Source of the DNA: a virus
IMG/VR virus record: IMGVR_UViG_3300043172_001413
Reading direction: 5' to 3' (one strand)
Length of the DNA stretch: 64,000 bases
Each line of letters opens with the position of its first letter. Position 1 is the first letter of the stretch. Under the pieces are notes generated by a model. It saw nothing but the letters and a program-made list of their open reading frames with translations. It had not been told where the DNA came from and did no database searches. Of the stretch, positions 11,922 through 48,577 are shown one piece after another. A program made the position numbers and the translations under genes.

Positions 11922-12130
11922 TGCGAGTAGATATAGAGCGTGTACGGAAAATCCAGGAAGAACGCACGAAGATCAATAAAGCGGATCTTGAAGATATCGA
12001 ATGGTATGAGGATGGGAAGAAGCTTGAGATCAGTCCTAAAGTGATAGAGGATTTTAAATTTATCGGGTTAAATAATACTGATTTTATCATATCAAATTAT
12101 TATTTAGAAAAAGAGTTCCGGATTTGGTGA
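11921..12130 (+). CDS. hypothetical protein (69 aa)
   Basis: ORF with an atga start/stop overlap. Confidence 0.3.
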   Translation: MRVDIERVRKIQEERTKINKADLEDIEWYEDGKKLEISPKVIEDFKFIGLNNTDFIISNYYLEKEFRIW

Positions 12131-12161
12131 CTTCATAACAGTGGATGATTCAAGGATTTAC

Positions 12162-12235
12162 GTCCCTGTAGCTCAGTTGGATAGAGCGCAAGTTTCCTAA
12201 ACTTGAGGTCGAAGGTTCGATTCCTTTCAGGGATA
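12162..12235 (+). tRNA. tRNA-Arg (CCU)
   Basis: gtccctgtagctcagttggatagagcg caagt-ttcctaa-acttg aggtc gaagg-ttcgatt-ccttt cagggat a. No encoded CCA. Confidence 0.75.
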
Positions 12236-12240
12236 TTTTT

Positions 12241-12435
12241 ATGAAAACAGTAAGTGATATAATAATAGAAACCCGGCGCAGAGCTTTACGCCATGTAACC
12301 CTTGCACCAACAAGGATATATGATATTCGTAAGGACTATAAAACCGGGAAACTTATAATTAAACCGAAGGAGCGCGTTATGCCAGCACTTCGTAACACCA
12401 ATTATCTGCAGTATGATACCCGAAGTGTAACATAA
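12241..12435 (+). CDS. hypothetical protein (64 aa)
   Basis: ORF. Confidence 0.3.
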   Translation: MKTVSDIIIETRRRALRHVTLAPTRIYDIRKDYKTGKLIIKPKERVMPALRNTNYLQYDTRSVT

Positions 12436-12455
12436 AACAGAGAGGAGGATAATCT

Positions 12456-13073
12456 ATGACTTCAATAGTTGTTTTAACAAAAAACTTTCAGTTTCACACT
12501 GAAGTCGGAATTGAAAAATTCTGGAGTTGGTTAGTAAAGGAAAAAATCCATGTTGTTGTATCACATGACGGCGTACAGACCTATGTTGATTATAATCGTC
12601 AGAAGATGTCGGTCGATCAGGCTATATCAACATTTAAGGTCAGGCGACCAATGGTAGTACAACTATTGAAATTCGCGGGTTATTGTCCAAAGACTGAAGA
12701 GATTGGTTTTAATAAAGCTGCAGTCTTTGATCGTGATGATAATTACTGCCAATACTGGCATTACAATGAATTAAATCGTAAGTTTAAGTATAAATGTAAG
12801 CCAAGTGAGAGGACTATGGATCATATTATTCCAAAGATTCAGGGTGGTGAGCCCCATTCTTTCACCAACTGTGTATGTTCATGCCGGCATTGTAATATTG
12901 ATATCAAGAAAGGTCGCACTCCGAAGGAAGCTGGTCTGAAATTGATTCGGGAACCGTTTATTCCGAAAAGGAACAAACGTAGTTTTGTTCAGTTTAAGTT
13001 CCCGTATGATGAGAGTAAACTTTCACATAGGATTTACGTGAAACATATCTTAAAAGCAGAGAAGGTGTCCTAA
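12456..13073 (+). CDS. HNH endonuclease
   Basis: C-terminal half: NYCQYWHYNEL...TMDHIIPKIQGGEPHSFTNCVCSCRHCNIDIKKG. Confidence 0.65.
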   Translation: MTSIVVLTKNFQFHTEVGIEKFWSWLVKEKIHVVVSHDGVQTYVDYNRQKMSVDQAISTFKVRRPMVVQLLKFAGYCPKTEEIGFNKAAVFDRDDNYCQYWHYNELNRKFKYKCKPSERTMDHIIPKIQGGEPHSFTNCVCSCRHCNIDIKKGRTPKEAGLKLIREPFIPKRNKRSFVQFKFPYDESKLSHRIYVKHILKAEKVS

Positions 13074-13088
13074 CGGGCACCTTTTTTA
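13064..13088 (+). terminator. intrinsic terminator
   Basis: ggtgtcc taac gggcacc followed by tttttt. Overlaps the stop of the 12456-13073 gene. Confidence 0.6.
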
Positions 13089-13102
13089 ATGGAGGAGAGA
13101 TT

Positions 13103-13387
13103 TTGAACTGTTACCATTGTGGTGGAGAAGCCGAGCAAGTCCCGTTCAACGAAATCGCTCAAAAGTCAAAAGAGATAGTAGACGAGAATTTTGCTGAAGC
13201 AGATGAAGACGATAGAGCTTTTATTGCAGGTGTTTCAATTTTGTTAGCATCAGGTCCTTATGGACGTTTTCGATGTAAAGAGTGTAAGAAGTCTTTGAGT
13301 GCTATGGAACTTATAGGCAGAAGTCTATGTAAAGTTGAGCCTTTACCACCGGGAGCGTTAGCACGTTATGCCGAAAAGCAAAAGTAG
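13103..13387 (+). CDS. hypothetical Cys-containing protein (94 aa)
   Basis: ORF with CYHCGG and CKECKK motifs. Confidence 0.35.
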   Translation: MNCYHCGGEAEQVPFNEIAQKSKEIVDENFAEADEDDRAFIAGVSILLASGPYGRFRCKECKKSLSAMELIGRSLCKVEPLPPGALARYAEKQK

Positions 13388-13662
13388 CAAAAAAAGAAAC
13401 AAGCGTATCTCGACAAGACGGGCTTTGAGAACGACAAGTGTTGATACCAAGCAGGACTCTATACGGGCCGGGAGGAGAGGTTACGGACTTGGGATAGGTA
13501 AGTGATTTAATAATTTATGGAGGTTAGCATAATGGAGGATACAATGAATAATATGGCAGAAGAGAAATTGAAATACGAGAAACCAGTATTTGAGAAAGAA
13601 GAAGAACTTACTTTTCCCGTGGAAATTATTGAACAGTTTAATGGAGGCCGATTCTGTGTCCA

Positions 13663-13923
13663 GTGCTCTGGTTGTCATGGGTGCCGATAATGACCCATAT
13701 GCGAACTGAAAAAAAAAGAGCTGATATGGGATATACTTGCGAGAACTCCCGTAGAAACCATACCTGCAGAGGTCCTCTTTACGTGGTTAGAGATAATAAA
13801 AAGGAAAGAGTTCTCTGTTTTGATACCGTTAAACATTTAATTCTTACCGGACACGAAGTCCAGATCATAAAGAATGTCCCCCGGAAAGCCTTTGAGGAAA
13901 AGAAAAGACTGGTCAATTTTTAA
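13663..13923 (+). CDS. hypothetical protein (86 aa)
   Basis: ORF. Confidence 0.3.
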   Translation: MLWLSWVPIMTHMRTEKKRADMGYTCENSRRNHTCRGPLYVVRDNKKERVLCFDTVKHLILTGHEVQIIKNVPRKAFEEKKRLVNF

Positions 13924-13943
13924 TAATGAATTAATATCTATTT

Positions 13944-14627
13944 ATGGGTATGGCAAAGAAGAAGCTCTTCGAGATTGATAAAGATAGCATTGTTAAGGCC
14001 ACAAAAGGTGGCTATTATTATTGCACGACTACTCCTCCACATCCCTATGGTGAAAAGCGCGATGATAGAAAAAAGAAATACATTTATTATCATAGAGCAC
14101 TTTTAGAGCAGAAGCTGGGCAGATATCTGAAATCTGAGGAGCAAGCAGACCATAAAGACGGTAATAAAGAGCACAATACCTCTTCAAATCTTGTATTATT
14201 AGTCCGCGGGCCGCATCAGAAGAGTCACGCTGAAAGAGGAAATCATTTCTGGAAGAAATCTCCTCGAAATAAACCTGGCAGGAAAGGTGCACGGAATGTC
14301 TTGGCAAAGTTTATTGAAGGTAGTGGTATTTTCATAGAAAAATGGATCCCAGTGAAAAAACTCCGAGAACCAAAGAAAAAACAAGCTCAGCGTGTAATAG
14401 CAAAATTTTCAGAAGAAAAGACTGCTGAGATATTATACCAGGCTTTTGTTAGCGGGCGTGAAGATCCGGCATATAAAAAGATGCCTAAATTGTTTCCTGA
14501 TTATAATAGTAATCAGGCGGATGATGCCACAGATTATTTAATGAGAGCTTTTCAGAAGAAACATTTTAATTTAAGTAAGGGGATTTTAAAAAGAGTCCAA
14601 AATAAAATTTTAGCAGGGATTACATAA
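13944..14627 (+). CDS. HNH endonuclease (homing-endonuclease family)
   Basis: YYHRALLEQKLGRYLKSEEQADHKDGNKEHNTSSNLVLLVRGPHQKSHAE. Homologous to the ORFs at 11031-11564 and 22562-23164. Confidence 0.6.
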   Translation: MGMAKKKLFEIDKDSIVKATKGGYYYCTTTPPHPYGEKRDDRKKKYIYYHRALLEQKLGRYLKSEEQADHKDGNKEHNTSSNLVLLVRGPHQKSHAERGNHFWKKSPRNKPGRKGARNVLAKFIEGSGIFIEKWIPVKKLREPKKKQAQRVIAKFSEEKTAEILYQAFVSGREDPAYKKMPKLFPDYNSNQADDATDYLMRAFQKKHFNLSKGILKRVQNKILAGIT

Positions 14628-35661: not shown

Positions 35662-36498
35662 ATGGCTGATAAGCCTAAAATATGTTTGTTGGTTATTGAT
35701 CCACAGAATGATTTCTGTGAGAAAGATGGCCGTCTTTCTGTTCCCGGTGCGAACGAAGACATGGCTCGACTGGGTACTATGGTGAGAAAATTTGGTGGAG
35801 ATATTGATGATATCCAGATCACCATGGATTCACATTATTTAATTCATATAGCCCACTCACGTTGCTGGGTTGACAAAAAGGGCAGACACCCCGATCCATT
35901 TTTCTTGCATTCCGGTAATAAGGTACCGACCCCTATCTCTCTTGACATGGTAAAAAACGGGGAATATAGAGCATATAATGCTAAATGGCAACAGCGCTAT
36001 GTTGATTATGTGACAGCTCTTAAAGCCAACGACCGCTATAAATTAATGATCTGGCCTGATCACTGTATCATTGGACATTCTGGTCAACTTATTTTTAATC
36101 CCTTTTTTGAAGCTGTAAATGATTGGGAGGATCGCTTTTTTGCGACAGCTCAACGGCATACAAAAGGCTCGAATCCTTTCACTGAACATTACAGTGCGGT
36201 GAGGGCTGATGTTGAAGACCCGGAGGATCCGAAGACTCGTCTGAATACAAAGCTCATTGATTTGTTGAAAACATATGATATGATTATCCCCGGAGGTGAG
36301 GCTCTTTCTCACTGTCTCGCTTTTACGTTGAGGGATGTTTTTAAAGAATTCGGTGTAGATCAGATACAGAAATTTACCTTGATGCTGGATGCCTGTTCAA
36401 GTGTTCCTGGTTGTGAGCAGATGGGTGAAGATTTTATTAAGGAATTTACTGCAGCTCCTTATTATATGAAGACTGCAAAAACTACTGATTTCTTTTAA
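35662..36498 (+). CDS. pncA: isochorismatase-family hydrolase, a probable nicotinamidase
   Basis: ICLLVIDPQNDFC matches the PncA motif. The genes are adjacent to pncB. Extra inserts are present. Confidence 0.6.
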   Translation: MADKPKICLLVIDPQNDFCEKDGRLSVPGANEDMARLGTMVRKFGGDIDDIQITMDSHYLIHIAHSRCWVDKKGRHPDPFFLHSGNKVPTPISLDMVKNGEYRAYNAKWQQRYVDYVTALKANDRYKLMIWPDHCIIGHSGQLIFNPFFEAVNDWEDRFFATAQRHTKGSNPFTEHYSAVRADVEDPEDPKTRLNTKLIDLLKTYDMIIPGGEALSHCLAFTLRDVFKEFGVDQIQKFTLMLDACSSVPGCEQMGEDFIKEFTAAPYYMKTAKTTDFF

Positions 36499-36567
36499 AA
36501 TTTGAGAGAAGTAGAGAAAAATTTTAAAAAATAGAGAAAAATCCTAAAATAAAAAAAGGGGTTACAT

Positions 36568-37335
36568 ATGCCTAAATTATTTGGTGTCGAGGCCAGTGTG
36601 GCAGCAAAAACAATGCACGGCTTCGATTATACGAGTATAGCAGTAGAGAAGCTCGGTGCAACGGAATATACTGTCGTCGGGATTGTGACAGACAAAACGA
36701 GTTCTGTCCGTGATTTCAAAGACAATCTCGAAAAAATGATGAGTGACAGTGTGGGTTCCTGCAGGAGTTCTGCGAGAGCCTTAAATCTCCTCATCCGTAC
36801 TACAGCCTTTAATAGTAACGGGATCGAGGAACTACATGGTTTCACTCTTTTAAATACCATTGATCCGGATGCTTATATAGACACTATTCATCCCGGAGGT
36901 TATACTAATCTTTATGAGGCCACTTTAGATTCGATTGAAGCTACCGATGAGTATGTGCAGGGTCTTTTTGATGCTGAAAGAATATGTAATGCTAACAGTA
37001 TCATCTTTATCATTACAGATGGAGAAGATAATGATTCGCCTCCTGATATAAATCCACAGGCAATAAAAGAAGCAATTGCTAAAGTAAAGCGCTCTGAAGT
37101 TATGGAATCTATCCGGACAATCCTTATTGGTATCAATGATACTAACCCTCATTTCAAACAGAAACTTGAGGAGTTCCGGCAGGAAGCGGCTCTTGATGAA
37201 TATTTGTCAATGGGTGATGTTACTGAAAAGAAATTGGCAAAATTGGCCCAGTTTGTGAGTCAGAGTATTTCTTCTACTTCACAGGCTCTGGGTACCGGTC
37301 AGCCATCACAACCAATTGATGATTTCAAATTCTAA
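36568..37335 (+). CDS. von Willebrand factor A (vWA) domain protein, TerY-like
   Basis: MIDAS-like residues VTDKTSSV, GYTNLYEA and IIFIITDGEDND. Confidence 0.6.
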   Translation: MPKLFGVEASVAAKTMHGFDYTSIAVEKLGATEYTVVGIVTDKTSSVRDFKDNLEKMMSDSVGSCRSSARALNLLIRTTAFNSNGIEELHGFTLLNTIDPDAYIDTIHPGGYTNLYEATLDSIEATDEYVQGLFDAERICNANSIIFIITDGEDNDSPPDINPQAIKEAIAKVKRSEVMESIRTILIGINDTNPHFKQKLEEFRQEAALDEYLSMGDVTEKKLAKLAQFVSQSISSTSQALGTGQPSQPIDDFKF

Positions 37336-37368
37336 CACTCTTAACGCACAAGGAGGGATTTAACATAT

Positions 37369-38259
37369 ATGTCTTGTGATTCTTTCTACAGTATCGGTGA
37401 TAAACATCAGGTTTGCCAGGATTATGCACTTCACGGTGAACTGGCTCCTGATCTGCAGTATGCTATTGTAGCTGATGGATGTTCCTCTGCGGAGCATTCA
37501 GAAATAGGTGCGCAGATTCTCTGTCATGCTGCAAAATATCAAATAGCGCTGTCTTATCAATCGGGACTGTTTCATGAATGTTCTCTGAAGTCCCTTTCCT
37601 GTATGCTGAGTAATAGTATTCTGAAAAGGATTCAAGAGGTCAGACTAAGTTATCCTATCAGTAGTAAGGCTCTGGAAGCAACTCTTTTTATAGCGCTGTA
37701 TGCACCATCCAAAGTGTTTGTATTTGGGTGGGGCGATGGAGTTATTATAGAGCACTATCGATTAGAAGGTCTTTACAATGGAACGGAGTTTGATGCTGTC
37801 ACTGAGATCGATTTTTCGGGTAATGCTCCGTTCTATCTGGTCTGTGACCGGGAACATTATTTGAAGGATTTACAGGGAAAAGGTTATGATGATCCACAAA
37901 CAACACTTACACATCATTACCAGAATGTGGTAGAGGGTAAAAGAGGTGAAATTGACTTAATTTCCCGGGATAAGCCCACTGACGGTTCTCCTTATAGATG
38001 GTGCCTTGATATGAATAACCGTGTTCATCCGGATAGGAAACTCATTTCCGTTACAGTATGTTCTGATGGTGTGAAATCATTTCAAGATATGGATAAGAAG
38101 CCCGTAAAGTTGATGGATATTGTACCGGAAGTTATAGGGTACAAATCAACCGAGGGGGAATTCGTGAAGAAACGAATGTTTTTCTTAAAGAGAAAAGCTC
38201 AAAAAAATAACTGGTCGCATTTTGATGATATAGGTTGCGGCACAATTTTCATTAATTAA
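37369..38259 (+). CDS. PP2C-like Ser/Thr phosphatase (putative)
   Basis: AIVADGCSSAEHSEIGAQI resembles the bacterial PP2C ADGMGG motif region. Its position right after a vWA gene fits the TerY-P triad layout. Confidence 0.4.
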   Translation: MSCDSFYSIGDKHQVCQDYALHGELAPDLQYAIVADGCSSAEHSEIGAQILCHAAKYQIALSYQSGLFHECSLKSLSCMLSNSILKRIQEVRLSYPISSKALEATLFIALYAPSKVFVFGWGDGVIIEHYRLEGLYNGTEFDAVTEIDFSGNAPFYLVCDREHYLKDLQGKGYDDPQTTLTHHYQNVVEGKRGEIDLISRDKPTDGSPYRWCLDMNNRVHPDRKLISVTVCSDGVKSFQDMDKKPVKLMDIVPEVIGYKSTEGEFVKKRMFFLKRKAQKNNWSHFDDIGCGTIFIN

Positions 38260-38269
38260 AGGAGGGACT

Positions 38270-38545
38270 GTGGATCCTAAAGCTATAGCTGAAATAAGTA
38301 CGTCTGCTGTCGGTATTGTAACAACCCTTCTCTCATGGGGTGGCGTTATAATACTGTTTTTAGTTTTTCGGAATTTTATTATTGCTGGAATTTCGAGAGC
38401 ATTTATCCAGGTCTTTGAATCGGGTGATCCGAGAACCCGGGAAATGCTGATTCGATTTATGGTGGATAAGAACATGGCTTATCCGGAAATATATGCGAGT
38501 ATGAAGCAGGAACTTGAGGGTCCCGGGCGACCGGAAGGGAGTTAA
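38270..38545 (+). CDS. small membrane protein, possibly a NfeD-like partner of the SPFH protein
   Basis: TM helix VGIVTTLLSWGGVIILFLVF. The gene sits directly upstream of an SPFH gene. Confidence 0.3.
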   Translation: MDPKAIAEISTSAVGIVTTLLSWGGVIILFLVFRNFIIAGISRAFIQVFESGDPRTREMLIRFMVDKNMAYPEIYASMKQELEGPGRPEGS

Positions 38546-38547
38546 TC

Positions 38548-38913
38548 ATGGCTCTATGGTTTATTCTTCAACCGTTATTTATTCTCGCTGTTGCTATCTT
38601 TTTAATGCAACAGTGGATTTATCCAGTAATAATGTCGAAACCTGTTTTTCCTCTTTTCAGGAGAAAAAAGAAAAAAATATTGGAAATAAAAGAGGAAAAG
38701 AAGGAGGAAATGTCTGCTGACAAAGCCCTTGAAATGGTGAATTTTCATTGTACCAAAGCGCTACATTTTATTGCAGTAGCTGAATCCTATGCAGAAAATG
38801 AAGAGAGATATGCTAAAGAGACTTTGGAAAAAACTATTCAAACGATGGAGTCAGTCAAAGAAAGGGCAGAAAAAATTAAAATTATTAATCCTAATAAAAA
38901 GGGAGGTGTTTAA
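38548..38913 (+). CDS. small membrane protein (121 aa)
   Basis: N-terminal TM helix, then a K/E-rich coiled segment. Confidence 0.35.
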   Translation: MALWFILQPLFILAVAIFLMQQWIYPVIMSKPVFPLFRRKKKKILEIKEEKKEEMSADKALEMVNFHCTKALHFIAVAESYAENEERYAKETLEKTIQTMESVKERAEKIKIINPNKKGGV

Positions 38914-40154
38914 TGAATTACAATCAAGATCAAAAGGGACTGAGTTTTCTGAAAGCGCTCTCTATTGCATTATGTGTGGTTGCAGTTCTGGTTCTAATTG
39001 TTTTTTCAGGCAAGATATGGCAGAATGTGAATGCGGATCAGATAGTAGTGACTCAAGATCCTATTGACGGTGATCTACACTGGCATATTACTGCCGGATT
39101 AAAATTCCAGAAATGGGGTCGGGTAACTGAATATATCAAATCATCACAGTATTGGTTCTCAAAACAAGAAGATCAGGGCGATGACGTTGATCAGAGCATA
39201 AGAATCCGTTTTAATGATGGTGGTCATGCCCGAATTTCCGGTTCTTATCGTTGGGAATTACCGCTTGGGGATTCAATATTAACGATGTTACACTCTAAAT
39301 TCGGCTCTATGAGAGCTGTTGAACAGGAATTGATTCGTCCAGTACTTGAAAAATCTGTTTATATGACTGGTCCGTTAATGTCCTCAAAACAGAGTTATGC
39401 TGAGACAAGAAATGATTTGATTTTATTTATAGAAGATCAGGCTAAATACGGCATATATAGAACTGAATCCAACGAAATAACAGGAAAGGATCAAATGACC
39501 GGGGCAGAAAAAACAATTACTGTTGTGGAGAGAATTAAGGATAGTAATGCACCAGGTGGCTTTGCTCGGCAGGAAGAATCTCCTTTCCAAACTTTCGGTA
39601 TAAAGACATATAACCTCAGTCTAAATGCCATCGATTATGACTCTACCGTTGAAAGACAGATAGAGTCTCAGCAAAGTGCCATCATGGAAGTTCAGACAGC
39701 TATTGCTGAAGCGAAGAAAGCCGAACAGAAAGCAATTACAGCTGAAAAGAATGGTCAAGCTGAAGCTGCCAAGGCTAAGTGGTTACAGGAAGTTGAAAAA
39801 GCAAAGTTTGTTACTCTGGCTGAACAGCAAAGAGACGTAGCCAGATTAGAAAAGGAAGCTGCTACCTTCACAAAACAGAAAGATATCCTTCTGGGCCAAG
39901 GTGAAGCCGAAAGAAAAAGACTGGTCATGAAGGCTGACGGTGCTCTGAAGCAGAAATTAGCGACTTGGTTAGAGTCTCAGAAAGCTTGGGCGGCTGCTGT
40001 TGGGGCCTATCAAGGAGATTGGGTACCTAAGACACAGTTTAATGGCACAGGTGCTAAAGGTGGAGTAAGTCAACCCCAACTTTTCATGGATATATTTAAT
40101 GCAAGGAATGCCCAGGCATTATCTCTCGATATGTCTGTTCCAAAAGGTAAATAA
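38913..40154 (+). CDS. SPFH/band-7 (flotillin/HflKC-like) domain membrane protein
   Basis: N-terminal TM anchor, then an SPFH-like region, then a long A/E/K-rich coiled coil (AIAEAKKAEQKAITAEKNGQAEAAKAKWLQEVEKAK) like the flotillin EA repeats. Confidence 0.55.
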   Translation: MNYNQDQKGLSFLKALSIALCVVAVLVLIVFSGKIWQNVNADQIVVTQDPIDGDLHWHITAGLKFQKWGRVTEYIKSSQYWFSKQEDQGDDVDQSIRIRFNDGGHARISGSYRWELPLGDSILTMLHSKFGSMRAVEQELIRPVLEKSVYMTGPLMSSKQSYAETRNDLILFIEDQAKYGIYRTESNEITGKDQMTGAEKTITVVERIKDSNAPGGFARQEESPFQTFGIKTYNLSLNAIDYDSTVERQIESQQSAIMEVQTAIAEAKKAEQKAITAEKNGQAEAAKAKWLQEVEKAKFVTLAEQQRDVARLEKEAATFTKQKDILLGQGEAERKRLVMKADGALKQKLATWLESQKAWAAAVGAYQGDWVPKTQFNGTGAKGGVSQPQLFMDIFNARNAQALSLDMSVPKGK

Positions 40155-40543
40155 TGAGTCCTGAAGGCGATCAACATTTATCTGGCTGGGACACCCAACT
40201 GTGGCGTATGGTTTATCACATACTCTTCAAGTTTGGGGTTCCAGTCCTTTTCAAAGAATTTCCGGGTGACGCAAGGGAAGGCAGTCACAGGGATTCCTTT
40301 CTACAGTGGTTTGTTCCAGAAGGACTGCACTATGAAGCAGTTGAACATTTTATCCTGGATGAATTGGAAAAAGATATAAAAAAAGGGAAATTTCTGAAAT
40401 TTGACGAACAGAGAGTTTGGGCTATAGGGCTTTCAGTTAAGATTTACCCTTTCTCAGGAATCGAGCCCTATCTGGAAAGAAAGTATCTGGAACCTTTGGT
40501 TGAAAATTTAGCCAAAAACTTTTTAGAAAATTTTAAAAAATGA
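40154..40543 (+). CDS. hypothetical protein (129 aa)
   Basis: ORF. Its start and stop are coupled to the neighbouring genes. Confidence 0.35.
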   Translation: MSPEGDQHLSGWDTQLWRMVYHILFKFGVPVLFKEFPGDAREGSHRDSFLQWFVPEGLHYEAVEHFILDELEKDIKKGKFLKFDEQRVWAIGLSVKIYPFSGIEPYLERKYLEPLVENLAKNFLENFKK

Positions 40544-42249
40544 ACAACAAAAAAACATATAAAGTCAGCACCACAAAGAATACTACGACTCTGACTGATA
40601 AAGATTATCTAGCAGTTGGTGGGCAGGCAATGGTATTCGCTAAAAAGAAACAAGGTCTGGCTTACAAGATTTACCATGATCCGAAACAGATGATCCCAGT
40701 CGCTAAAATTCAGGAACTGGCTGAACTGAAACACGACAACATACTGGCACCCATAGAGCCTCTTTATGATACTGTTACAAGAGTCCCTGTTGGTTTCACT
40801 ATGAGATATGTGCAGGGTATAGAGTTTCTATGTAAAATTTTTACCCGTACATTCCGGGATGAGAAGAATATTTCTCCTATGGAAATTGTGGGTCTTGTTA
40901 CTCAGAAACAAAACACACTGCGGTATATCCATACGCAGAGTAATCACACTATTCTGGGAGTTGACCTAAATGAGATGAATTTTCTGCTTGATAAAGACAT
41001 TAAAAATGTGTACTTCATCGATGTAGATAATTATCAGACAAAGAATTTTCCTTGTGTAGCCATTATGGAAAGTATTCGGGATAGAACGACAAAACGGGGG
41101 GAGTTTTCTGAACTCACTGACTGGTTTTCATGGGCTGTAGTGACCTTCCAGATGTATATCGGGATGCACCCATATAAAGGTTTTTGCAAGGGCTTCAAAC
41201 CGGCTGAGTGGAGCAAAAGAATGGATCAGGGAGTATCCTGTTTTCATCCGGATGCCTCTTTACCCACAACATGTCAGGATTTTTCAGTTATCCCAAAGAA
41301 ACACCGGGATTGGTATGAAGCAGTCTTCCAGCACGGTGAGAGATCAATACCGCCGTTTGCCGATGGTGTGGTGATTGCTGCTGCTATTGTCCGTACCATA
41401 GGAAGTAAGGGTGATTTTGTGGTGAGAGAACTTCTTGAAACACCTGAACCAATTATGAATGTTTATGTATCTAACGGAAAGCGCTTCATAGTCACTTCCG
41501 GGGGTGTGTATGACAATCAAAAGAAAAAGGTAGTTACCTTCCAGAAACCTTATAAAAGGGCTCAGAAGGGCTTATGTGATGTCTTTGGGGAAGATCCGTT
41601 GTTTGTTTATTTAAAAGACCTGAAAGCGAAATTCTATGAGTTAAATGGTACTGAGGTCAGTTCCATAAAAGCTGAAGATATAATGGGAAGTAATGGTGCT
41701 ATCTATACCATTAATAATGGTCAGCTGATAGAGAACACTTTCGAGCGGTTTGGGAAACTACAGCACCGCACAAAAATGGTGTGTGATATAAGTATGTCTT
41801 ATAAAGTTTTTAAGGGAGTGGTTATCCAGGATGATTTCATGAAATGCCGGCTGGCTATTCCTTTTGAAATAGGTAAATGTATAAATGTAAATATAGAGGA
41901 GCTGGATGGGCAGAGAATCGTGGATGCCCGGTATGAGAAAGGCATTTGTGTGGTATTAGCTGAGAAGCAGGGAAAATATTTTAGATATATTCTCTGTTTT
42001 AATGACGCACATTCAGATTATTCGATTCTTACTGAAGATGTTATCGATTTTCATCTGGTTAACTTTACCGTTTTACCAAATAAAATGTGCTTACTTATTG
42101 ACGATGAAAAGTTATCAATGTTCAAAAATAACAAGGGCAGGAAAGAAATCACAAATTTACCCTTTGATGTTTCAATGAGATTGTACCATGACAACATGCA
42201 AGTTTTATTTGTAGATGATAGGAAGTTATACTCAGTTACAATGAAATAG
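40540..42249 (+). CDS. Ser/Thr protein-kinase-like protein (569 aa)
   Basis: Glycine loop AVGGQAMVF. The VAIK-equivalent is LAYKIY. A catalytic-loop-like segment is ILGVDLNEMNFLL, and DVD replaces DFG. Long C-terminal extension. Confidence 0.45.
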   Translation: MNNKKTYKVSTTKNTTTLTDKDYLAVGGQAMVFAKKKQGLAYKIYHDPKQMIPVAKIQELAELKHDNILAPIEPLYDTVTRVPVGFTMRYVQGIEFLCKIFTRTFRDEKNISPMEIVGLVTQKQNTLRYIHTQSNHTILGVDLNEMNFLLDKDIKNVYFIDVDNYQTKNFPCVAIMESIRDRTTKRGEFSELTDWFSWAVVTFQMYIGMHPYKGFCKGFKPAEWSKRMDQGVSCFHPDASLPTTCQDFSVIPKKHRDWYEAVFQHGERSIPPFADGVVIAAAIVRTIGSKGDFVVRELLETPEPIMNVYVSNGKRFIVTSGGVYDNQKKKVVTFQKPYKRAQKGLCDVFGEDPLFVYLKDLKAKFYELNGTEVSSIKAEDIMGSNGAIYTINNGQLIENTFERFGKLQHRTKMVCDISMSYKVFKGVVIQDDFMKCRLAIPFEIGKCINVNIEELDGQRIVDARYEKGICVVLAEKQGKYFRYILCFNDAHSDYSILTEDVIDFHLVNFTVLPNKMCLLIDDEKLSMFKNNKGRKEITNLPFDVSMRLYHDNMQVLFVDDRKLYSVTMK

Positions 42250-42429
42250 AGGGTAAAGTGAATCAGATAGTAGCACGTCGTAATGGCGAATATACGTGCT
42301 TAGACTGTCAGGAACAGTGCACCAATGTTTGTCTGAGGTGCTATAACTGGGATAAGTTCAAGCTGGACGAAGAGATACATAGGCTCCCTTATGTGGAGCG
42401 GTCTAAAAGAAATGGAAGGAAATGGAAAA

Positions 42430-43314
42430 ATGGATTGCGAAAAGGTTAAGAAAAACATTAGAACAGGATTAAAGAATTATATCATAGAGAACGGAATTAA
42501 AAGTCTTGTTATAGGTGTCAGTGGTGGGGTTGACAGTGCCCTTTGCTGTGCGTTGGCGCGGCCTGTTTGTGATGAGCTGGGCATTTCTCTCATTGGTAGG
42601 AGTATTTCTATAGATTCGAATAAGCCTGATGAGATTGCCCGGGCACGGGATGTAGGTAGATTTTTCTGTCACGAATTCATAGAGGTTGATTACACAGATC
42701 TCTACAACTGTATGGTTGACTTTTTTGAGTCACCGGAGGGACCTCTTGATAAAATAGCTCGGGGAAATATCAAAGCGCGGTTACGCATGCAGAACCTCTA
42801 CTGTATTGCTGGAAAAACAAAAGGGATGGTTCTTTCCACTGATAATCTTACAGAACATTTTTTAGGTTTCTGGACGCTCTGCGGCGATGTCGGAGATTTC
42901 GGATTTATTCAAAATCTTTGGAAACAGGAAGTCTATGAGTTAACTGAGTACATAGCTTCTTATGATATCACTCTTGATAATCAGGAAGCCCGTAGAGCGC
43001 TTCTTGAGTGTATAAATGCTGTCCCGACTGATGGTCTGGGTATTTCCGAAACGGATCTGGATCAGATCGGTGCTGCAAATTACGGTGAGGTAGATATTAT
43101 CCTTAAAACATGGCTGACAAAAGACAGTGATAATTTCTACTGGGATAACTGGTTGAATTATGAAGAAAGAGAAGATAAGTATGAGGATTTTGTAGCATAC
43201 CGTGAGACTTTGAAGAATCATCCGGTGGTACTAAGACATGAGAGGACTCATTTTAAAAGAAAATGGCCTATCTATCTCGAAAGAAGTAAACTTTTTAACA
43301 ATCATTCACTTTAA
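42430..43314 (+). CDS. nadE: NH3-dependent NAD+ synthetase
   Basis: SLVIGVSGGVDSALCCAL is the PP-loop SGGxDS motif. Length and layout match NadE. The six-frame ORF starts at 42391; MDCEK at 42430 is the more likely start. Confidence 0.7.
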   Translation: MDCEKVKKNIRTGLKNYIIENGIKSLVIGVSGGVDSALCCALARPVCDELGISLIGRSISIDSNKPDEIARARDVGRFFCHEFIEVDYTDLYNCMVDFFESPEGPLDKIARGNIKARLRMQNLYCIAGKTKGMVLSTDNLTEHFLGFWTLCGDVGDFGFIQNLWKQEVYELTEYIASYDITLDNQEARRALLECINAVPTDGLGISETDLDQIGAANYGEVDIILKTWLTKDSDNFYWDNWLNYEEREDKYEDFVAYRETLKNHPVVLRHERTHFKRKWPIYLERSKLFNNHSL

Positions 43315-43329
43315 AGAAGGAGGTCTCAT

Positions 43330-44031
43330 ATGAGACGATTATTTGTAGTATTATTTGCTGTTCTCTTAATGGTAGGGGGAGGCGAGGATATTTTTGCGAA
43401 GAGTAGAGGTGGCGGTTCTAGGAAGAGTTCTTTTAAATTATCAAAACCAAAACCGAGACCAAAGCCTGCTCCGACGAAAAAAATAGTTAAGCCGAAGAAA
43501 ACCCGGACAGACCAAAAGAGTACTATTAAGAAGACTACAACCAGTACAAAGCCTAAAGCAGTGTCCTCGAATAAAATGGACAGAAGACAGACAAAGGCCA
43601 TGAAGACAAAAAATAAAGCTGCCGGTAAAAAGTACGGGAACAAAGCGAATGCGTCAAAGGCGTATAAGGGTGACATGGCGAAAAAGCATACTTCTTATAA
43701 AAGTGCCACTCCACCTGCAACACGGCCGGCAAGTGTTCCTCGGACTGTTGTTGTGGTCGCAGGGCAACCAGGTTATGCTGTAGGGTACCATCCTTTTGGT
43801 GGAGGATTTTACGGATATGGCTATATGGACCCCGTAACAAATATGTATGTCCGTCTGGCAGCTGCGCAGATGATTGCAAATGACATGGCTCTGCAAAATG
43901 CTGGTTACGGGCACTATGGTGCTAATGGTGCTCCAGTCGTTTACCGGAATAATGGGCTAATCATTTTCTTGTCTATTTTCGGGTTTATTTGTCTTATCGT
44001 TATCATTGTTGCTGTTGTCAAGAGAAATTAA
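43330..44031 (+). CDS. secreted/membrane-anchored basic low-complexity protein
   Basis: N-terminal signal peptide, a K/P/T-rich basic region, a G/Y-rich segment and a C-terminal TM helix LIIFLSIFGFICLIVIIVAVV. Confidence 0.45.
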   Translation: MRRLFVVLFAVLLMVGGGEDIFAKSRGGGSRKSSFKLSKPKPRPKPAPTKKIVKPKKTRTDQKSTIKKTTTSTKPKAVSSNKMDRRQTKAMKTKNKAAGKKYGNKANASKAYKGDMAKKHTSYKSATPPATRPASVPRTVVVVAGQPGYAVGYHPFGGGFYGYGYMDPVTNMYVRLAAAQMIANDMALQNAGYGHYGANGAPVVYRNNGLIIFLSIFGFICLIVIIVAVVKRN

Positions 44032-44743
44032 TATGAAAGACGTATCGAACTTTAAGAATTTCAGAAAGGGTGACATTGCCACCCTTTCTGATATCCAGAC
44101 TCAAAAGGAGTTTGGAGAGTTGACCGCTGACTTCAAAATCATTGAAATACGTACTTACCGTGAACCGGGTGGTTTCTTTCACTATACCGGATATGTCTGT
44201 GAATATCAGGGAAAAGGTGAAGAGGATGAATCACAGCAGATCATGATTCTCTTACGGGAGATGGGTGAGATGTACGATCTCTTTGTCTATTACATGGATC
44301 AGGAAGGTGATGTAACTGAATATCCTTTCTTAATTGAGGAAAAGGCAGTAGAGGATGAAAAAGATAGCGGAGAAAAACCAGTAGAGGATGAAGTTTCTGA
44401 TTTTGATGATAACGATGATGAGGATGAAGAAGAGGATGAGGACTCAGGGACAACGGAAGACCTTGTGGAACGCTTTGAAGTGACCCTGAATTTCGATGAA
44501 GGTGAATCTGATGTAACCTGGGACAAGAAGGAAGCAGGGAGCACTTTCGGTGTTGAAACTACTTCTACTGAAACGGAAAGCGACACAAAAACTCTTGCTG
44601 AATATTTCACCAATGATGAGACTCACGGTAATCCATATTGTTTCATCGAGTGGACCGGTGATAGTAAAAAGGGTTGGATTGAGATCTGGTATGGCTGTGA
44701 GATCCAGCCGGAGGATCTTGAGATGTTTCGCACAAAAAAATAA
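44006..44743 (+). CDS. highly acidic protein (D/E-rich)
   Basis: DEDEEEDEDSG tract. Overall strongly acidic. Confidence 0.45.
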   Translation: MLLLSREINMKDVSNFKNFRKGDIATLSDIQTQKEFGELTADFKIIEIRTYREPGGFFHYTGYVCEYQGKGEEDESQQIMILLREMGEMYDLFVYYMDQEGDVTEYPFLIEEKAVEDEKDSGEKPVEDEVSDFDDNDDEDEEEDEDSGTTEDLVERFEVTLNFDEGESDVTWDKKEAGSTFGVETTSTETESDTKTLAEYFTNDETHGNPYCFIEWTGDSKKGWIEIWYGCEIQPEDLEMFRTKK

Positions 44744-44774
44744 TTAATTAAATAACATTTTTTATGGAGGTATT

Positions 44775-45473
44775 ATGAGTAACGAACAACCTTCGGCAAT
44801 TGAAGTCCAGAATGCAAAGAGAATACTGGATTTTTTGTCTGAAACAAAAGGTGTCTCATACGAGACTTTGAGAGAAGACATCTTTGCAGTTAAAAACGCT
44901 GAAACGGGTGTGACCTGCATAGTAGATGTAGAACCTACCCTTGTCTTTCTCTCTGTTGAAATCTGTGACGTGCCCGAAGAAAATCAGGCAGAGCTGAATG
45001 ACTTTATGATGGAATTAAACGGCAAAGCGATTCACGGTAAGTTCTGCAAACTTGCCGGTAAATACTTTTTCAGGGATTACCTGGAATTCGCAAATCTTGA
45101 TTTCAATGAACTGGAAGCATCATTGAAATGGGCCTTTTTAATGGTTGGTGCCAATGTCCAGAAGATTGCTAGTATTCATGCTACTGGAGAAATTGGTGAT
45201 GATATTGATCTTGAGAGTGATGATATCGATCTTGAGGATCTGATGGAAACCGGTGAAGTAGTTGCAGATCTCCTCATCAATACTGTGGCAGAAATGGGAG
45301 ACAAAGAAGTTCAAAGGGATGAGCAGGTAGCTCCGGTTGAAGTTGTTGAGAAACAATCTGTCTCAGTGGGACCCTCATCAGCGCCAGATACATTTGACTC
45401 CGTTGGTGGTGACTCCGGTGGTGGTGACTCCGGTGATGACTCCGGTGGTGATGACTCCGGTGGTGATGATTAA
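44775..45473 (+). CDS. acidic protein with C-terminal (GGDS/GDDS) repeats
   Basis: Ends with the SGGGDSGDDSGGDDSGGDD repeat. Confidence 0.45.
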   Translation: MSNEQPSAIEVQNAKRILDFLSETKGVSYETLREDIFAVKNAETGVTCIVDVEPTLVFLSVEICDVPEENQAELNDFMMELNGKAIHGKFCKLAGKYFFRDYLEFANLDFNELEASLKWAFLMVGANVQKIASIHATGEIGDDIDLESDDIDLEDLMETGEVVADLLINTVAEMGDKEVQRDEQVAPVEVVEKQSVSVGPSSAPDTFDSVGGDSGGGDSGDDSGGDDSGGDD

Positions 45474-45483
45474 GACGACTAAA

Positions 45484-45515
45484 CTGAAAATCTGAAAATC
45501 TGAAAATCTGAAAAC
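45484..45515 (+). repeat. 4x tandem 8-mer (ctgaaaat)
   Basis: ctgaaaatctgaaaatctgaaaatctgaaaac in the intergenic region upstream of the pspA-like gene. Confidence 0.8.
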
Positions 45516-45562
45516 ACAGATATTTAATTAACAGATTAATCCATCTAATTAAGGAGAAGACA

Positions 45563-46255
45563 ATGAAGGGTATTTTAAACGTGTTCAAAAACATGGGCAG
45601 AGTTGCCGATGGGAAAGCCCAAGACAAAGCAGATAAAATTGAGTCTGAAAACTCAGTTACATTTGGCAAACAGGATGTTGCAAAGATGAATGTCGAACTC
45701 GGAAAAGTCAATGAAAATATTGGCACAATGAAGGGTGAAATAGCCGTTCTTGAAGATAAGGTAAAGGGTATCAAACTGGAGATAAAGAAACATGAATCCG
45801 ATGCGACAGAATTGGCTGAAGACAATGAAGCTCTTGCACTAAAGCACTGTGAAGCCGCTGAGAGACTTGAAAGTCAGTTGGAACCTTTACAGGCAGCTCT
45901 TACGGTTCAAAAGGAAACTCTTGCTGAACAGCAATCTGCAAAGGAGCAGTTGAAGAGTAATGTAATGCAAGCTGAGTCTGACCTTGTTACTCTGAAAGCT
46001 ATGGCTGATGCCGCGAGTGCCAATGAGAAACTGGTTACTGTCAATACCAGCGGTAGCACCAGTGCTGTAGCTGATTTTGCTAAACGTAAGGAAGATATGA
46101 AAAAGAGGCTTATAAAAAGTCGGGCCATGAAAGATGAAGGTAGCGGTGACGACGACCTGGCTAAAGAGACCGCTGCAGCTCTCGGTACTGGCGGAGGGGC
46201 ATCTCGTCTTGAGATGTTAAAGGCTAAAAATAAGGGTAGCGGTAAGAAAAAATAA
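45563..46255 (+). CDS. PspA/IM30 (Vipp1/ESCRT-III-like) family protein
   Basis: N-terminus MKGILNVFKNMGRVADGKAQDKADKIE parallels PspA [27 protein letters not shown]. All-helical coiled coil of about 230 aa. Confidence 0.6.
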   Translation: MKGILNVFKNMGRVADGKAQDKADKIESENSVTFGKQDVAKMNVELGKVNENIGTMKGEIAVLEDKVKGIKLEIKKHESDATELAEDNEALALKHCEAAERLESQLEPLQAALTVQKETLAEQQSAKEQLKSNVMQAESDLVTLKAMADAASANEKLVTVNTSGSTSAVADFAKRKEDMKKRLIKSRAMKDEGSGDDDLAKETAAALGTGGGASRLEMLKAKNKGSGKKK

Positions 46256-46281
46256 TTGGATATTCCGATAAATACTGAAAA

Positions 46282-46306
46282 GGGGGAGTTTTCTCCTCCT
46301 TTTTTA
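46282..46306 (+). terminator. intrinsic terminator
   Basis: gggggag tttt ctcctcc followed by tttttt, after the pspA-like gene. Confidence 0.55.
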
Positions 46307-46324
46307 TCAAGTAAGGAGTAATCA

Positions 46325-47503
46325 GTGAAAAAATCCATATCTATATTCATATTGATATTGATGTTTGTGCCCGTCTCTTTTGCTGTTACTGGTTCTCCCG
46401 GAGCTGGGACTAAGAGCGTAAAGTCTTGGCCGAAAGAACCTGTCGAGAAAACTCTGATTGTTGATGTCCATGAATTTAAACCTATGGTAGTAGTGGAACA
46501 TCTGAAAGAATTGGAAGAATATAAATCCCGGTGGGGGTCTGCTGTACAACCTGTCAGCCTTGAAGGTCATGATATCGATCTCTGGGAAAGAATTCGTAAA
46601 GACCTGAATCTGGATAAATTCAACTACTATTATCTTGACAGTTTCAGTAAGGTTATGCCTCGTTTAAAAGGTGGCGCTGATGTATCTCTCGGAGGAATAA
46701 CTATTACAGCGGTTCGGGAAGAAGATGCTGATTTCGTTCCGTACATGCGTTCTGGTGCAGGGGTACTCGTACTGAAAGAAATAAGATGGTGGGTAAAAAT
46801 CTGGCTCGAAATAGTATTTTATGCGCTGTTACCAATAACTTTAGCCCCTTTCTTTTTGGGTTGGGCTATATATGTATGTTTTTCAGCGTTAATAATGTGG
46901 CTATTAGAAAAAGGTAATCCAGATTTCAATGATAAATTTGGTCCTGGTTTTCCTGATGCCCGGTTCTTTGTACATGTAGTTATATCGTCCACAGGTTTTG
47001 GTAATCAGATACCTATGTCAAAGTGGGGTAGAAGAGTTGCCGTGATTTTGATGTACTCCGGTATTGGCTTTATGTTTCCTCTTATAACTGGACAGATCAC
47101 ATCAGAGATCAGCAAGAAGAATTTAATGTATATATCCTGTAAAGAGGATTTAAAGGATAAAAGAGTGGCTGTAAAGGACGGGACAGTGACATCAAAATCA
47201 GTAACTCTCCAGAATCTTGGAGCAGAGTTATTCCCATGTGAGAGCGTAGATAGCGGTATTATGCTTCTTAAAGATGGAAAGGTTGATGCAGTTGTACATG
47301 ATAAGCCGGCACTGGAATATGCTGCCAAAGATGATCATGAATTAACCGTTGTGGATGAGCTTTTCGATATCCAGATATACGGTATTGCATTAAAACAGGG
47401 TAGCCCGTTAAGAGAAAAAATAAGTCGCCTCGTCCTTGAGTACGAAGAAAGTGGCTTTCTCGATGAATTATCCATTAAATGGCTGGGGAGTACCAGTGAC
47501 TAA
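46325..47503 (+). CDS. prokaryotic ionotropic-glutamate-receptor-like ligand-gated channel (SBP lobe, pore, SBP lobe)
   Basis: Signal peptide. Two TM helices flank a pore-loop-like VISSTGFGNQIP. The C-terminal lobe (RVAVKDGTVTSKS...VDAVVHDKPALEYA...IALKQGSPLREKISRLVLEYEESGFLDEL) is typical of SBP_bac_3, giving the GluR0-like S1-M1-P-M2-S2 layout. Confidence 0.5.
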   Translation: MKKSISIFILILMFVPVSFAVTGSPGAGTKSVKSWPKEPVEKTLIVDVHEFKPMVVVEHLKELEEYKSRWGSAVQPVSLEGHDIDLWERIRKDLNLDKFNYYYLDSFSKVMPRLKGGADVSLGGITITAVREEDADFVPYMRSGAGVLVLKEIRWWVKIWLEIVFYALLPITLAPFFLGWAIYVCFSALIMWLLEKGNPDFNDKFGPGFPDARFFVHVVISSTGFGNQIPMSKWGRRVAVILMYSGIGFMFPLITGQITSEISKKNLMYISCKEDLKDKRVAVKDGTVTSKSVTLQNLGAELFPCESVDSGIMLLKDGKVDAVVHDKPALEYAAKDDHELTVVDELFDIQIYGIALKQGSPLREKISRLVLEYEESGFLDELSIKWLGSTSD

Positions 47504-47693
47504 TAAAACAAAGGAATTAAAAAAGGAAGCATTCAAAGCTTTGTCATGTCTCTTTATAGAAGTGCATGAAAGTATTGCTAATGATGTTAGGAATAAAGTC
47601 AGTGATCTTGTGACTGCTCTTGAAGTGGAATTAGAAGTTGCTGATACTACTGATAAGAAAATGGACATAATCTTGAAAGCTTTGAAAAAATGA
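47436..47693 (+). CDS. hypothetical protein (85 aa); start uncertain
   Basis: ORF overlapping the 3' end of the channel gene in another frame. Confidence 0.25.
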   Translation: MSTKKVAFSMNYPLNGWGVPVTNKTKELKKEAFKALSCLFIEVHESIANDVRNKVSDLVTALEVELEVADTTDKKMDIILKALKK

Positions 47694-48577
47694 ATAAGAA
47701 ATATCCTGAAGAATTACTGCAGCAAATAAAGCAGGTTTATGTGGGCACTTTTGGCCGTACTTCCATGGCAGCCCGTTTGGATGATATTCAGAAAGAGGCC
47801 TTTGAATTGACCCGGGCTCGGGATATGGAGAGCCTGAAGGACGAGACAAGCGATTTACTGGGTACCCTGTTTCAATGGATAAATGAAGCAGGGTACAGTA
47901 TCGAAGAGTTGGTACAGATGAACTGTGATAAAATTAATAACCGTTCTCTGTATCGGCAGCTCGGAAGAAAAGTTTCGGTTGCTCTCATAGGAGGGGCCTT
48001 TGATCCTATACATAATGGACACATAGCGATGGCAGAGTTTCTTTTAAATGAGACAAAGAGTTTTGATGAAGTCTGGTTTGTGCCCTGTTATCGCCATTTG
48101 TACGGGAAATTAATGGCTCCTGCTAAACTGCGCCTTGAAATGTGTAGAATGGCAGCCAGTTCTGACAAAAGGATTAAAGTCTGTGATTATGAGATTGTCA
48201 ATGAATTGGCAGGGGAAACCTATTATTTCTTGAATAAATTTTTAGAGGAACCTTTTGCTAAAGATGAGTACCGGTTCAGCTATGCCATAGGACTTGATAA
48301 TGCAAATACTTTTCATAAATGGAAAAGTTACGAGTATCTGGAAAAACTTACCTCTTTTATTGTGGTCTCCCGCCAGGGTGAAGTACCGGAGCAGGGTGTT
48401 GATTGGTACCATAAAGAACCCCATAAATTTTTTGAGGCAGGAGGCTTAATTCCTGACATATCCTCTACTGAAGTACGTAATATGATTCGTGAAAATGCTG
48501 TCCCGGGAGCTATCCGGTCAAAGTTACCTGAGAAAGAAATATTCAATTTAATAGAAAAAGAGGGACTTTACAGCTAA
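47690..48577 (+). CDS. nadD: MazG-like NTP pyrophosphohydrolase domain fused to nicotinate-mononucleotide adenylyltransferase (NadD)
   Basis: C-terminal domain VALIGGAFDPIHNGHIAMAE is the (H/T)xGH nucleotidyltransferase motif of NadD. The N-terminal ~90 aa (LDDIQKEAFELTRA...ETSDLLGTLFQW) resemble MazG. Confidence 0.7.
   Translation: MNKKYPEELLQQIKQVYVGTFGRTSMAARLDDIQKEAFELTRARDMESLKDETSDLLGTLFQWINEAGYSIEELVQMNCDKINNRSLYRQLGRKVSVALIGGAFDPIHNGHIAMAEFLLNETKSFDEVWFVPCYRHLYGKLMAPAKLRLEMCRMAASSDKRIKVCDYEIVNELAGETYYFLNKFLEEPFAKDEYRFSYAIGLDNANTFHKWKSYEYLEKLTSFIVVSRQGEVPEQGVDWYHKEPHKFFEAGGLIPDISSTEVRNMIRENAVPGAIRSKLPEKEIFNLIEKEGLYS

Follow-up and report, generated by a model that had tools for sequence, protein, structure and literature searches.

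Described phospho-switches and the phage locus

Triads made up of a vWA (von Willebrand factor A) protein resembling TerY, a PP2C phosphatase and a zinc-ribbon-fused kinase, known as TerY-P, have been proposed to act as metal-dependent phosphorylation switches (Anantharaman et al. 2012, as relayed in passages of PMC11090510 and PMC4978471). The version whose kinase carries an oligonucleotide/oligosaccharide-binding (OB) fold acts as an anti-phage system (Gao 2020, as cited in a passage of PMC11090510), and the TerY-P kinases described in those passages occur together with Ter genes, restriction systems of the McrBC/CoCoNuT type or genes for secretion. The E. coli operon yegL-pphC(yegK)-yegI, with its genes arranged yegL-pphC-(yegJ)-yegI, matches the locus described here in its three components and in their order; its kinase YegI is active, autophosphorylates and is dephosphorylated by PphC (10.1101/819920, 10.1101/303594). 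That locus lies in a 64,000-nucleotide (nt) stretch of the IMG/VR virus record IMGVR_UViG_3300043172_001413 (the window, at its full length). The feature under study, at positions 36568-42249, includes genes for a vWA protein, a PP2C-type phosphatase and a kinase of the Ser/Thr type; directly upstream lies a gene for a PncA-like, predicted nicotinamidase. The PncA-like, vWA and PP2C proteins and the kinase, which is fused to a beta-propeller, make up a conserved module that also occurs as a tight operon in bacterial chromosomes. We put at roughly 55% the probability that this module, as a phospho-switch of a TerY-P-like (YegL/PphC/YegI-like) kind, controls the recycling of nicotinamide to NAD+ or provides a scaffold for it.

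Phages can rebuild NAD+ and thereby counter NADase immunity (10.1101/2024.02.11.579819). The NAD+ reconstitution pathways (NARPs) comprise NARP1 (Adps and Namat), NARP2 (Nampt and Nmnat) and NARP3 (PnuC and NadR) (10.1101/2024.02.11.579819, PMC13464706); their enzymes differ from those of the window, whose phosphoribosyltransferase is of the PncB type, and no match to a PRPS-like protein, PnuC or NadR was obtained among the genes scanned, which span 33.5-48.6 kb of the window. Preiss-Handler clusters of pncB, nadD and nadE are known in jumbo phages (PMC11662467), and the PncB, NMNAT-like and NadE set of the window resembles them; the purpose of the window's set is presumed to be the same as that of the NARPs. 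Neither the NAD-jumbo phage paper (PMC11662467) nor the 2020 huge-phage survey mentions a kinase, phosphatase or vWA partner, and in the searchable literature we found no paper that combines vWA, PP2C and kinase genes with an NAD salvage gene set.

The kinase is encoded on a Joint Genome Institute (JGI) contig of 512,380 bp, the closest phages in the databases are uncultured and huge (462-595 kb), and the window holds 26 tRNA genes in several clusters (536-23755), as is typical of huge phages. The source element is therefore a huge phage of about 512 kb, in agreement with an earlier note on this DNA, made from the sequence alone, which had called the element phage-like. The genes of the locus are as follows, with lengths in amino acids (aa).

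33978-35153, plus strand: PncB, nicotinate phosphoribosyltransferase (NAPRTase E=9e-49, NAPRTase_N E=2e-26)
35662-36498, plus strand: PncA-like predicted nicotinamidase, assigned by its family profile against the PDB; outside the region delimited in the earlier note
36568-37335, plus strand: vWA protein, 255 aa (Pfam VWA E=1.8e-4)
37369-38259, plus strand: PP2C phosphatase, 296 aa (PP2C_2 E=2e-16)
38270-38545, plus strand: small membrane protein, 91 aa (residues 11-46 hydrophobic)
38548-38913, plus strand: small membrane protein, 121 aa (N-terminal residues 1-30 hydrophobic)
38913-40154, plus strand: SPFH/Band 7 protein, 413 aa (Band_7 E=1.5e-5)
40154-40543, plus strand: orphan open reading frame (ORF), 129 aa (no library match)
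40540-42249, plus strand: Ser/Thr kinase, 569 aa (YegI-like Hanks kinase and helical linker, then a 7-bladed beta-propeller)
42391-43314, plus strand: NadE, NAD+ synthetase (NAD_synthase E=4e-33)
47690-48577, plus strand: NMN/NaMN adenylyltransferase-like protein (NadD/NMNAT; CTP_transf_like E=1e-18)

The earlier note had described seven contiguous and co-directional genes from the vWA to the kinase gene, and this layout is exact in coordinates and strand. From the vWA gene onward, the first three pairs of neighbours are separated by 33, 10 and 2 nt and the last three overlap by 1, 1 and 4 nt (a range of -4 to 33 nt); starts and stops are indeed coupled. A promoter and terminator scan of the locus gave no enrichment and no internal terminator that sets the SPFH cassette apart. 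What the note missed is the conserved partner of the triad, namely the nicotinamidase gene directly upstream, together with the NAD+ salvage genes on both sides. A 63-aa ORF at 42258-42449, doubtful as a real gene, overlaps the annotated start of NadE by 59 nt; since the NAD_synthase match begins at residue 22, the true start of NadE is probably a downstream Met.

The four-gene core in phages and bacteria

The gene sets around relatives of the kinase were compared in 87 loci, of which 80 were IMG/VR loci collected with the kinase profile and seven came from phage records and metagenome assemblies; all were annotated with iterated hidden Markov models built from the window's own proteins. About 240 related loci were available overall, dereplication left 79 kinase-anchored loci, and neighbours were counted in flanks of 10 kb. 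The kinase and PP2C families were each present in 86 of the 87 loci, vWA in 80 and the PncA-like family in 79. PncB and NadE each occurred in 32 loci, NMNAT in 20 and SPFH in 7, and the PspA, CesT-like and channel families in 4-5. A reciprocal scan anchored on the vWA gene returned the same core: among 79 loci, PncA was found in 78, PP2C in 75 and the kinase in 74, followed by PncB (28), NadE (21), NadD (20) and SPFH (0). The triad proposed in the earlier note is thus a genuine cluster, far beyond chance. An unbiased all-against-all clustering of ORFs in the 87 loci ranked the same four families at the top (86, 84, 79 and 78 loci). After removal of antisense shadow ORFs, the next families were NadE (23+8), PncB (22+7), an NrtR-like regulator with Nudix and winged-helix domains (22) and NMNAT (15), then Thg1-like (11), Macro (9), NADAR (6) and NAD-dependent ligase (6) families.

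As a single sequence, the PncA-like protein matches no Pfam family, including Isochorismatase. When its family profile is searched against the PDB, the top matches are all nicotinamidases, led by Pnc1 (2h0r, E=3e-13) and followed by 3pl1, 1ilw and 2wt9, the enzymes of M. tuberculosis (PncA), P. horikoshii and Acinetobacter; nicotinamidases account for five of the eight PDB matches. The catalytic triad D13/K168/C218, the metal site D56/H58/H65/H134 and a WPxHC motif are invariant in the family. These properties mark the product of 35662-36498 as a predicted nicotinamidase (PncA/Pnc1) of the cysteine hydrolase superfamily. With PncB for the second step of Preiss-Handler salvage, the NMNAT-like protein for the third and NadE for the last, the window carries a complete predicted route from nicotinamide to NAD+; pncB, a nadD-type gene and nadE stand together within 33978-48577 on a phage genome of more than 200 kb. 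The N-terminus of the NMNAT-like protein shows weak similarity to MazG (E=7e-4).

The three proteins of the triad have the expected domains, with the active-site residues kept. Profile searches, which the earlier note had proposed as a check, recovered PP2C and Band_7 directly, and the single-sequence scores of VWA (E=1.8e-4) and Pkinase (E=5.5e-5) fell slightly under the gathering cut-offs. Among 34 relatives of the vWA protein, however, 17 match Pfam VWA and 11 match VWA_2, and these family-level matches remove the doubt over the sub-cut-off call; family-level evidence does the same for the kinase. The MIDAS of the vWA protein (its metal-ion-dependent adhesion site) is complete, with D42, S46, T113 and D151 invariant and S/T44 kept in at least 90% of sequences. 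Its C-terminal tail (LAKLAxFVSxSISSxSQALGTG) is rich in Ser, with S231, S233, S235, S238 and S247 invariant, and is retained in the bacterial copies as well. A search of 1.84e9 representatives with the window vWA protein alone as query indicates a discrete subfamily (727 matches at E<=1e-3, all about 250 aa, 320 of them at E<=1e-30). The vWA profile and the single PP2C sequence found no match in the PDB, and a comparison with NCBIfam was likewise negative for the triad, the small ORFs and the SPFH protein.

In the PP2C protein the metal-binding residues D18, D36-G37, G122-D123-G124, D233-G234 and D286-D287 are invariant, and it is predicted to be an active PP2C-type Ser/Thr phosphatase. The kinase has all residues expected of a Hanks-type Ser/Thr kinase, each of them invariant across 47 homologues: G27 and G28 of the Gly-loop, K43 of the VAIK motif, E59 of helix alphaC, the catalytic D142 with N147, and the metal-binding D161. 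Its HRD motif is replaced by G/V-V-D, as in YegI. The kinase and helical linker occupy residues 1 to about 285, and the propeller residues of about 293-569 (DNA about 41395-42249). To judge by these residues, the active sites are intact in all four core proteins. The families are sizeable, with about 950 kinase homologues and about 600 vWA clusters at 50% identity.

The PncA-like gene nearly always stands directly upstream of the vWA gene, at a median distance of 38 nt in phages and 18 nt in bacteria. Other NAD genes lie within the span from PncA to the kinase in 11 of the 79 dereplicated phage loci, in varied permutations that include vWA-PncB-PP2C, PP2C-NadE-kinase, PP2C-NMNAT-kinase (NMNAT takes this position in L012, L051 and L079) and vWA-PncB-NadE-PP2C-NMNAT-kinase; NadE also adjoins the kinase in many loci. 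Such differing permutations inside the module argue against plain inherited synteny.

A scan of GTDB species genomes yielded 80 further loci with the module, mostly in metagenome-assembled genomes (MAGs) of Armatimonadota, Acidobacteriota, Thiotrichales, Myxococcota and Leptospirales. The four genes are tightly packed there (median gaps of 18, 36 and -4 nt), PncB is often the next gene, and, in a set of 83 additional loci made up mostly of contigs from GTDB genomes, 21 have PncB no more than 10 kb from the module. One module is situated in a 4.1-Mb chromosome between LeuB/LeuA and genes for an FGGY kinase and a major facilitator superfamily transporter (L099). Another has the order PncB-NadE-PncA-vWA-PP2C-kinase-NrtR and adjoins the gene for the Leptospira porin OmpL1 (L094), and a third has Prs upstream and NadE downstream (L154). 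We considered whether the GTDB matches might merely be mis-binned phage contigs and rejected this explanation, as three loci of megabase scale have housekeeping or lineage-marker neighbours. Two independent genomic settings, phage and bacterial, thus place the triad inside NAD+ salvage operons. In 17 GTDB loci (1416-3638 of L168, and 16 other loci) the module also adjoins a gene for a 740-aa protein, which has a methyltransferase domain at its N-terminus and whose C-terminal part is uncharacterised.

Profile comparison ties the phage triad to its E. coli counterpart to different degrees. The alignment of the kinase with YegI takes in the kinase core plus the helical stretch after it (hhalign 97.9%, E=4e-13), and the two kinases have unusual catalytic-loop and DFG-equivalent motifs in common; the PP2C profile aligns with PphC (82.8%, E=9e-6). 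Unlike the phage module, the operon of E. coli is not accompanied by a nicotinamidase or by NAD genes. With respect to TerY-P, the PP2C gene does stand beside a vWA gene and a Ser/Thr kinase gene in one cluster, and the vWA protein has the fold and the MIDAS, although its similarity to YegL is weak and NCBIfam gives no match. The kinase, however, carries a beta-propeller in place of the zinc ribbon or OB fold. PADLOC reported nothing relevant in the eight proteins of the locus, but this negative is uninformative because the YegI/PphC/YegL triad of E. coli went unrecognised too. Because the propeller C-terminus and the NAD-salvage partners differ, the module appears, on sequence grounds, to be a TerY-P-like variant and not a member of that class. 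A Deinococcus operon (DRA0331-DRA0334; 10.64898/2026.01.23.701218) likewise combines a vWA protein, a Ser/Thr kinase and a PP2C phosphatase; it differs in its FHA adaptor, its transmembrane kinase, its link to the DNA-damage response and its lack of a nicotinamidase.

These comparisons also bear on the idea that the module is a TerY-P-type conflict system without any role in NAD metabolism. It would then work on its own in defence, superinfection exclusion or counter-defence, and would merely share an accessory or anti-defence island with the NAD genes. The vWA-PP2C-kinase order and the homology of the kinase to YegI agree with the make-up of the triad, TerY-P-like modules are known from reports both as independent anti-phage systems and as restriction add-ons (passages of PMC11090510 citing Gao 2020 and Anantharaman 2012), and further NAD genes are present in the flanks of just about half of the phage loci. 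However, PncA is as constant as the triad members and nearly always keeps its place directly upstream of vWA, the same arrangement recurs in bacterial NAD salvage and NrtR operons among housekeeping genes, and the kinase lacks the domains of the described TerY-P kinases. Among the conserved neighbours in the 87 phage and 80 genome loci there is no nuclease, McrBC, Ter, other restriction or effector gene, and NAD and ADP-ribose genes are found instead. We therefore regard this explanation as unlikely.

The ADP-ribose genes among the neighbours raise a different possibility, in which the nicotinamidase would remove nicotinamide as the product inhibitor of sirtuins, ADP-ribosyltransferases and NADases, and the switch would regulate an ADP-ribosylation cycle and not NAD+ supply as such. 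Yeast Pnc1 controls Sir2 through the clearance of nicotinamide in this manner. The Macro and NADAR genes in 9 and 6 loci, respectively, are in line with such a role, as is the NrtR-like Nudix family (22 phage and 27 bacterial loci); among the MAG neighbours there are also proteins labelled ADP-ribosylglycohydrolase-like (11 loci) and Tpt1/KptA-like (7 loci), labels read from sequence and unconfirmed by profile search. Yet the commonest partners are the biosynthetic PncB, NadE and NMNAT, which complete the route to NAD+, NrtR is itself a regulator of NAD synthesis genes, and neither an ADP-ribosyltransferase nor a sirtuin is among the conserved neighbours. Control of ADP-ribosylation is accordingly a quite improbable account of the module.

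The SPFH cassette and its insertion site

The gene between the phosphatase and the kinase that draws attention in the window encodes an SPFH/Band 7 protein with an N-terminal membrane anchor (Band_7, 25.6 bits against a cut-off of 23.6; membrane segment at residues 8-39). It also matches phrog_11908 (E=7e-38), the sole informative result of the PHROGs scan, and its homologues are annotated as SPFH/HflC. Each of the 91-aa, 121-aa and SPFH proteins has a single N-terminal hydrophobic segment. We tried the two small membrane proteins as NfeD-like partners of the SPFH protein and rejected this, as neither ORF matches NfeD or another Pfam family; the 91-aa ORF has no family match in the libraries scanned. 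Each has a single homologue among the fetched loci, in L088 (64% identity for the 91-aa and 65% for the 121-aa protein). The 129-aa ORF matched nothing in any library scanned and has no homologue in the fetched loci, L088 included.

The earlier note saw the SPFH protein as a scaffold at the centre of a membrane-associated module for phospho-signalling or remodelling. In this reading, the SPFH scaffold and the small membrane proteins would be under the control of the kinase and phosphatase on either side and would act with the MVP-like and PspA/IM30 proteins. The genes of the cassette, including the 129-aa ORF, are indeed translationally coupled between PP2C and the kinase, and the same site in L088 (kinase identity 76%) is occupied by the two membrane proteins and SPFH as well. 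SPFH homologues lie within 10 kb in 7 of the 79 dereplicated kinase-anchored loci, once immediately after the kinase (L080), and there are further hints in the SPFH-like shoulder domain of MVP and in the nearby PspA gene. The arrangement of two membrane proteins and SPFH between PP2C and kinase is, however, confined to the window phage and L088. Of the co-conservation that the note expected, the triad's part holds and the SPFH part does not: SPFH is inside the module in 1 of 79 loci, in none of the 79 vWA-anchored loci, and in none of the bacterial modules. No membrane segment is predicted in the vWA, PP2C, kinase or PncA-like proteins, so that the core appears soluble, and MVP, PspA, the CesT-like protein and the channel are common to only 4-5 close relatives. 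We give a membrane module organized around SPFH very little chance.

What occupies the slot varies among relatives. In sister phages it holds a DUF723 gene, NAD genes or nothing: L089 (kinase 80% identical) has two small ORFs and the DUF723 gene there, and in L004 and L008, with kinases 58-60% identical, PP2C overlaps the kinase directly. Insertions longer than 500 nt are found in phage loci in 42% of vWA|PP2C junctions, 37% of PP2C|kinase junctions and 14% of PncA|vWA junctions, against 0-2% at all three junctions in bacterial loci; the PP2C|kinase junction is thus a phage insertion hot-spot. The SPFH family is large (2456 matches, including proteins labelled as from MAGs of the candidate phyla radiation (CPR) or DPANN and proteins of other huge phages) and occurs independently of the triad. 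The sole match in a DNA-level search of a phage collection was the SPFH gene of LR756500, a 55% identical copy that lies about 100 kb from that phage's own triad and lacks the two small membrane proteins. Because the slot content varies among relatives and the SPFH family occurs independently of the triad, the SPFH cassette is a lineage-specific insertion of 2.3 kb, 129-aa ORF included, and is cargo, not part of the system core.

Other cargo and neighbours deserve brief mention. The DUF723 gene of L089 (4953-6344) is suspected to be endonuclease-like. L090 has a gene for an inosine-uridine nucleoside hydrolase between vWA and PP2C, and a TnpB/Cas12f-like gene and a resolvase downstream (cargo at 5735-6619 and 12006-14078). 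Many SPFH homologues of 50-60% identity are deposited as proteins of CPR (Patescibacteria) or DPANN MAGs (P0130, P0131, P0135, P0157 and P0174 among them); such labels might come from hosts, from an exchange of genes or from the binning of phage contigs into MAGs.

Within the window, an MVP-like ORF of 826 aa (30752-33232, minus strand) stands in divergent orientation beside the NAD salvage block and matches MVP_shoulder (E=1e-28) and Vault_3 (E=1e-6), overlapping Band_7. A 2026 preprint reports an NADase domain in the vault protein TEP1 (10.64898/2026.09.04.749371), and a link between vaults and NAD may exist. Five genes at 43330-47503 encode a membrane protein of 233 aa, an acidic protein of 245 aa, a CesT_Tir-like protein whose tail is rich in Asp and Gly, PspA/IM30 and a channel of glutamate-receptor-like type with SBP_bac_3 and Ion_trans_2 domains; all or most of this block is present in 4-5 related phages (L004/L056, L011, L088 and L089), and its position relative to the NAD genes varies. 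The earlier note was correct in recognizing the MVP-like and PspA/IM30 genes. Nearby, 26786-27526 and 33565-33795 (minus strand) code for a CoaBC-like flavoprotein (DFP, E=8e-39) and for an acyl carrier protein (PP-binding, E=2e-14), so the phage has cofactor-related genes besides those for NAD.

A candidate switch for nicotinamide recycling

A precedent for a phospho-switch that acts through a vWA C-terminus is found in Sulfolobus, where the C-terminal region of the MIDAS vWA protein ArnB is phosphorylated by a Hanks kinase and reset by a phosphatase, with an altered formation of complexes (PMC6509490, PMC12852372). The ArnA/ArnB/ArnC/PP2A switch differs from the phage module in its output, motility gene expression, and in the C-terminus of ArnB, a helical bundle that an FHA protein reads, whereas the phage module has a propeller and an NAD link and no FHA protein.

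Which protein phosphorylates which, what signal is sensed and how NAD+ is affected, we infer as follows. The propeller would serve as the input domain and sense a ligand or protein signal. The kinase would then autophosphorylate and also phosphorylate the vWA protein on its Ser-rich tail, with the PP2C phosphatase resetting the phosphorylation. The vWA protein would be the phospho-acceptor and adaptor, its MIDAS binding or scaffolding the nicotinamidase or another salvage enzyme. In this way the switch might gate the entry of nicotinamide into the Preiss-Handler pathway, from nicotinamide to nicotinic acid, nicotinic acid mononucleotide, nicotinic acid adenine dinucleotide and NAD+. In the phage, it could match the rebuilding of NAD+ to its loss, using nicotinamide freed by host NADase defence systems, and the phage module plausibly counters NAD+-depleting immunity.

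Several observations weigh against this proposal of a phospho-switch on nicotinamide recycling. Its support is gene linkage, that is, comparative genomics, and linkage is not mechanism. PncB, NadE or NadD lies within the 10-kb flanks in just 40 of the 79 phage loci, so that NAD genes other than PncA are frequent but non-obligatory neighbours, and part of the synteny is inherited, most phage loci being from related huge phages. The PncA-like protein is very divergent, with about 60-90 extra residues, and its substrate could be something other than nicotinamide. Eight bacterial loci (L097, L100, L112, L141, L152, L153, L155 and L171) lack PP2C between vWA and kinase (gaps of 3-164 nt); these PncA-vWA-kinase loci are a phosphatase-less version of the module. 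The similarity of the vWA protein to YegL is weak (hhalign 27.7%), and propeller folds are functionally generic. Finally, the SPFH cassette is translationally coupled to the kinase in the window phage, and a local functional tie between the two is possible.

A bolder form of the proposal, which we hold only tentatively, is that the module is an undescribed, signal-regulated gate for NAD+ recycling. Its propeller would sense NAD+ breakdown products or an attack on NAD+ pools and turn on the phage's Preiss-Handler pathway, giving a regulated fourth reconstitution pathway, and the same switch would govern NAD+ salvage in several bacterial phyla.

The SPFH gene, which seemed to be the centrepiece of the locus, turns out to be cargo in an insertion hot-spot, and the interest shifts to the nicotinamidase and the triad. 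The depletion of NAD+ ranks among the major modes of anti-phage immunity in bacteria, and NARP1-3 have recently become a topic of active work; the NAD+ rebuilding pathways described to date are sets of enzymes without known post-translational control. If the proposed role of the module is true, it would be the first candidate regulator of an NAD+ rebuilding pathway, and the poorly understood triads of the TerY-P/YegI type would gain an output that can be assayed, namely nicotinamidase activity or the level of NAD+.

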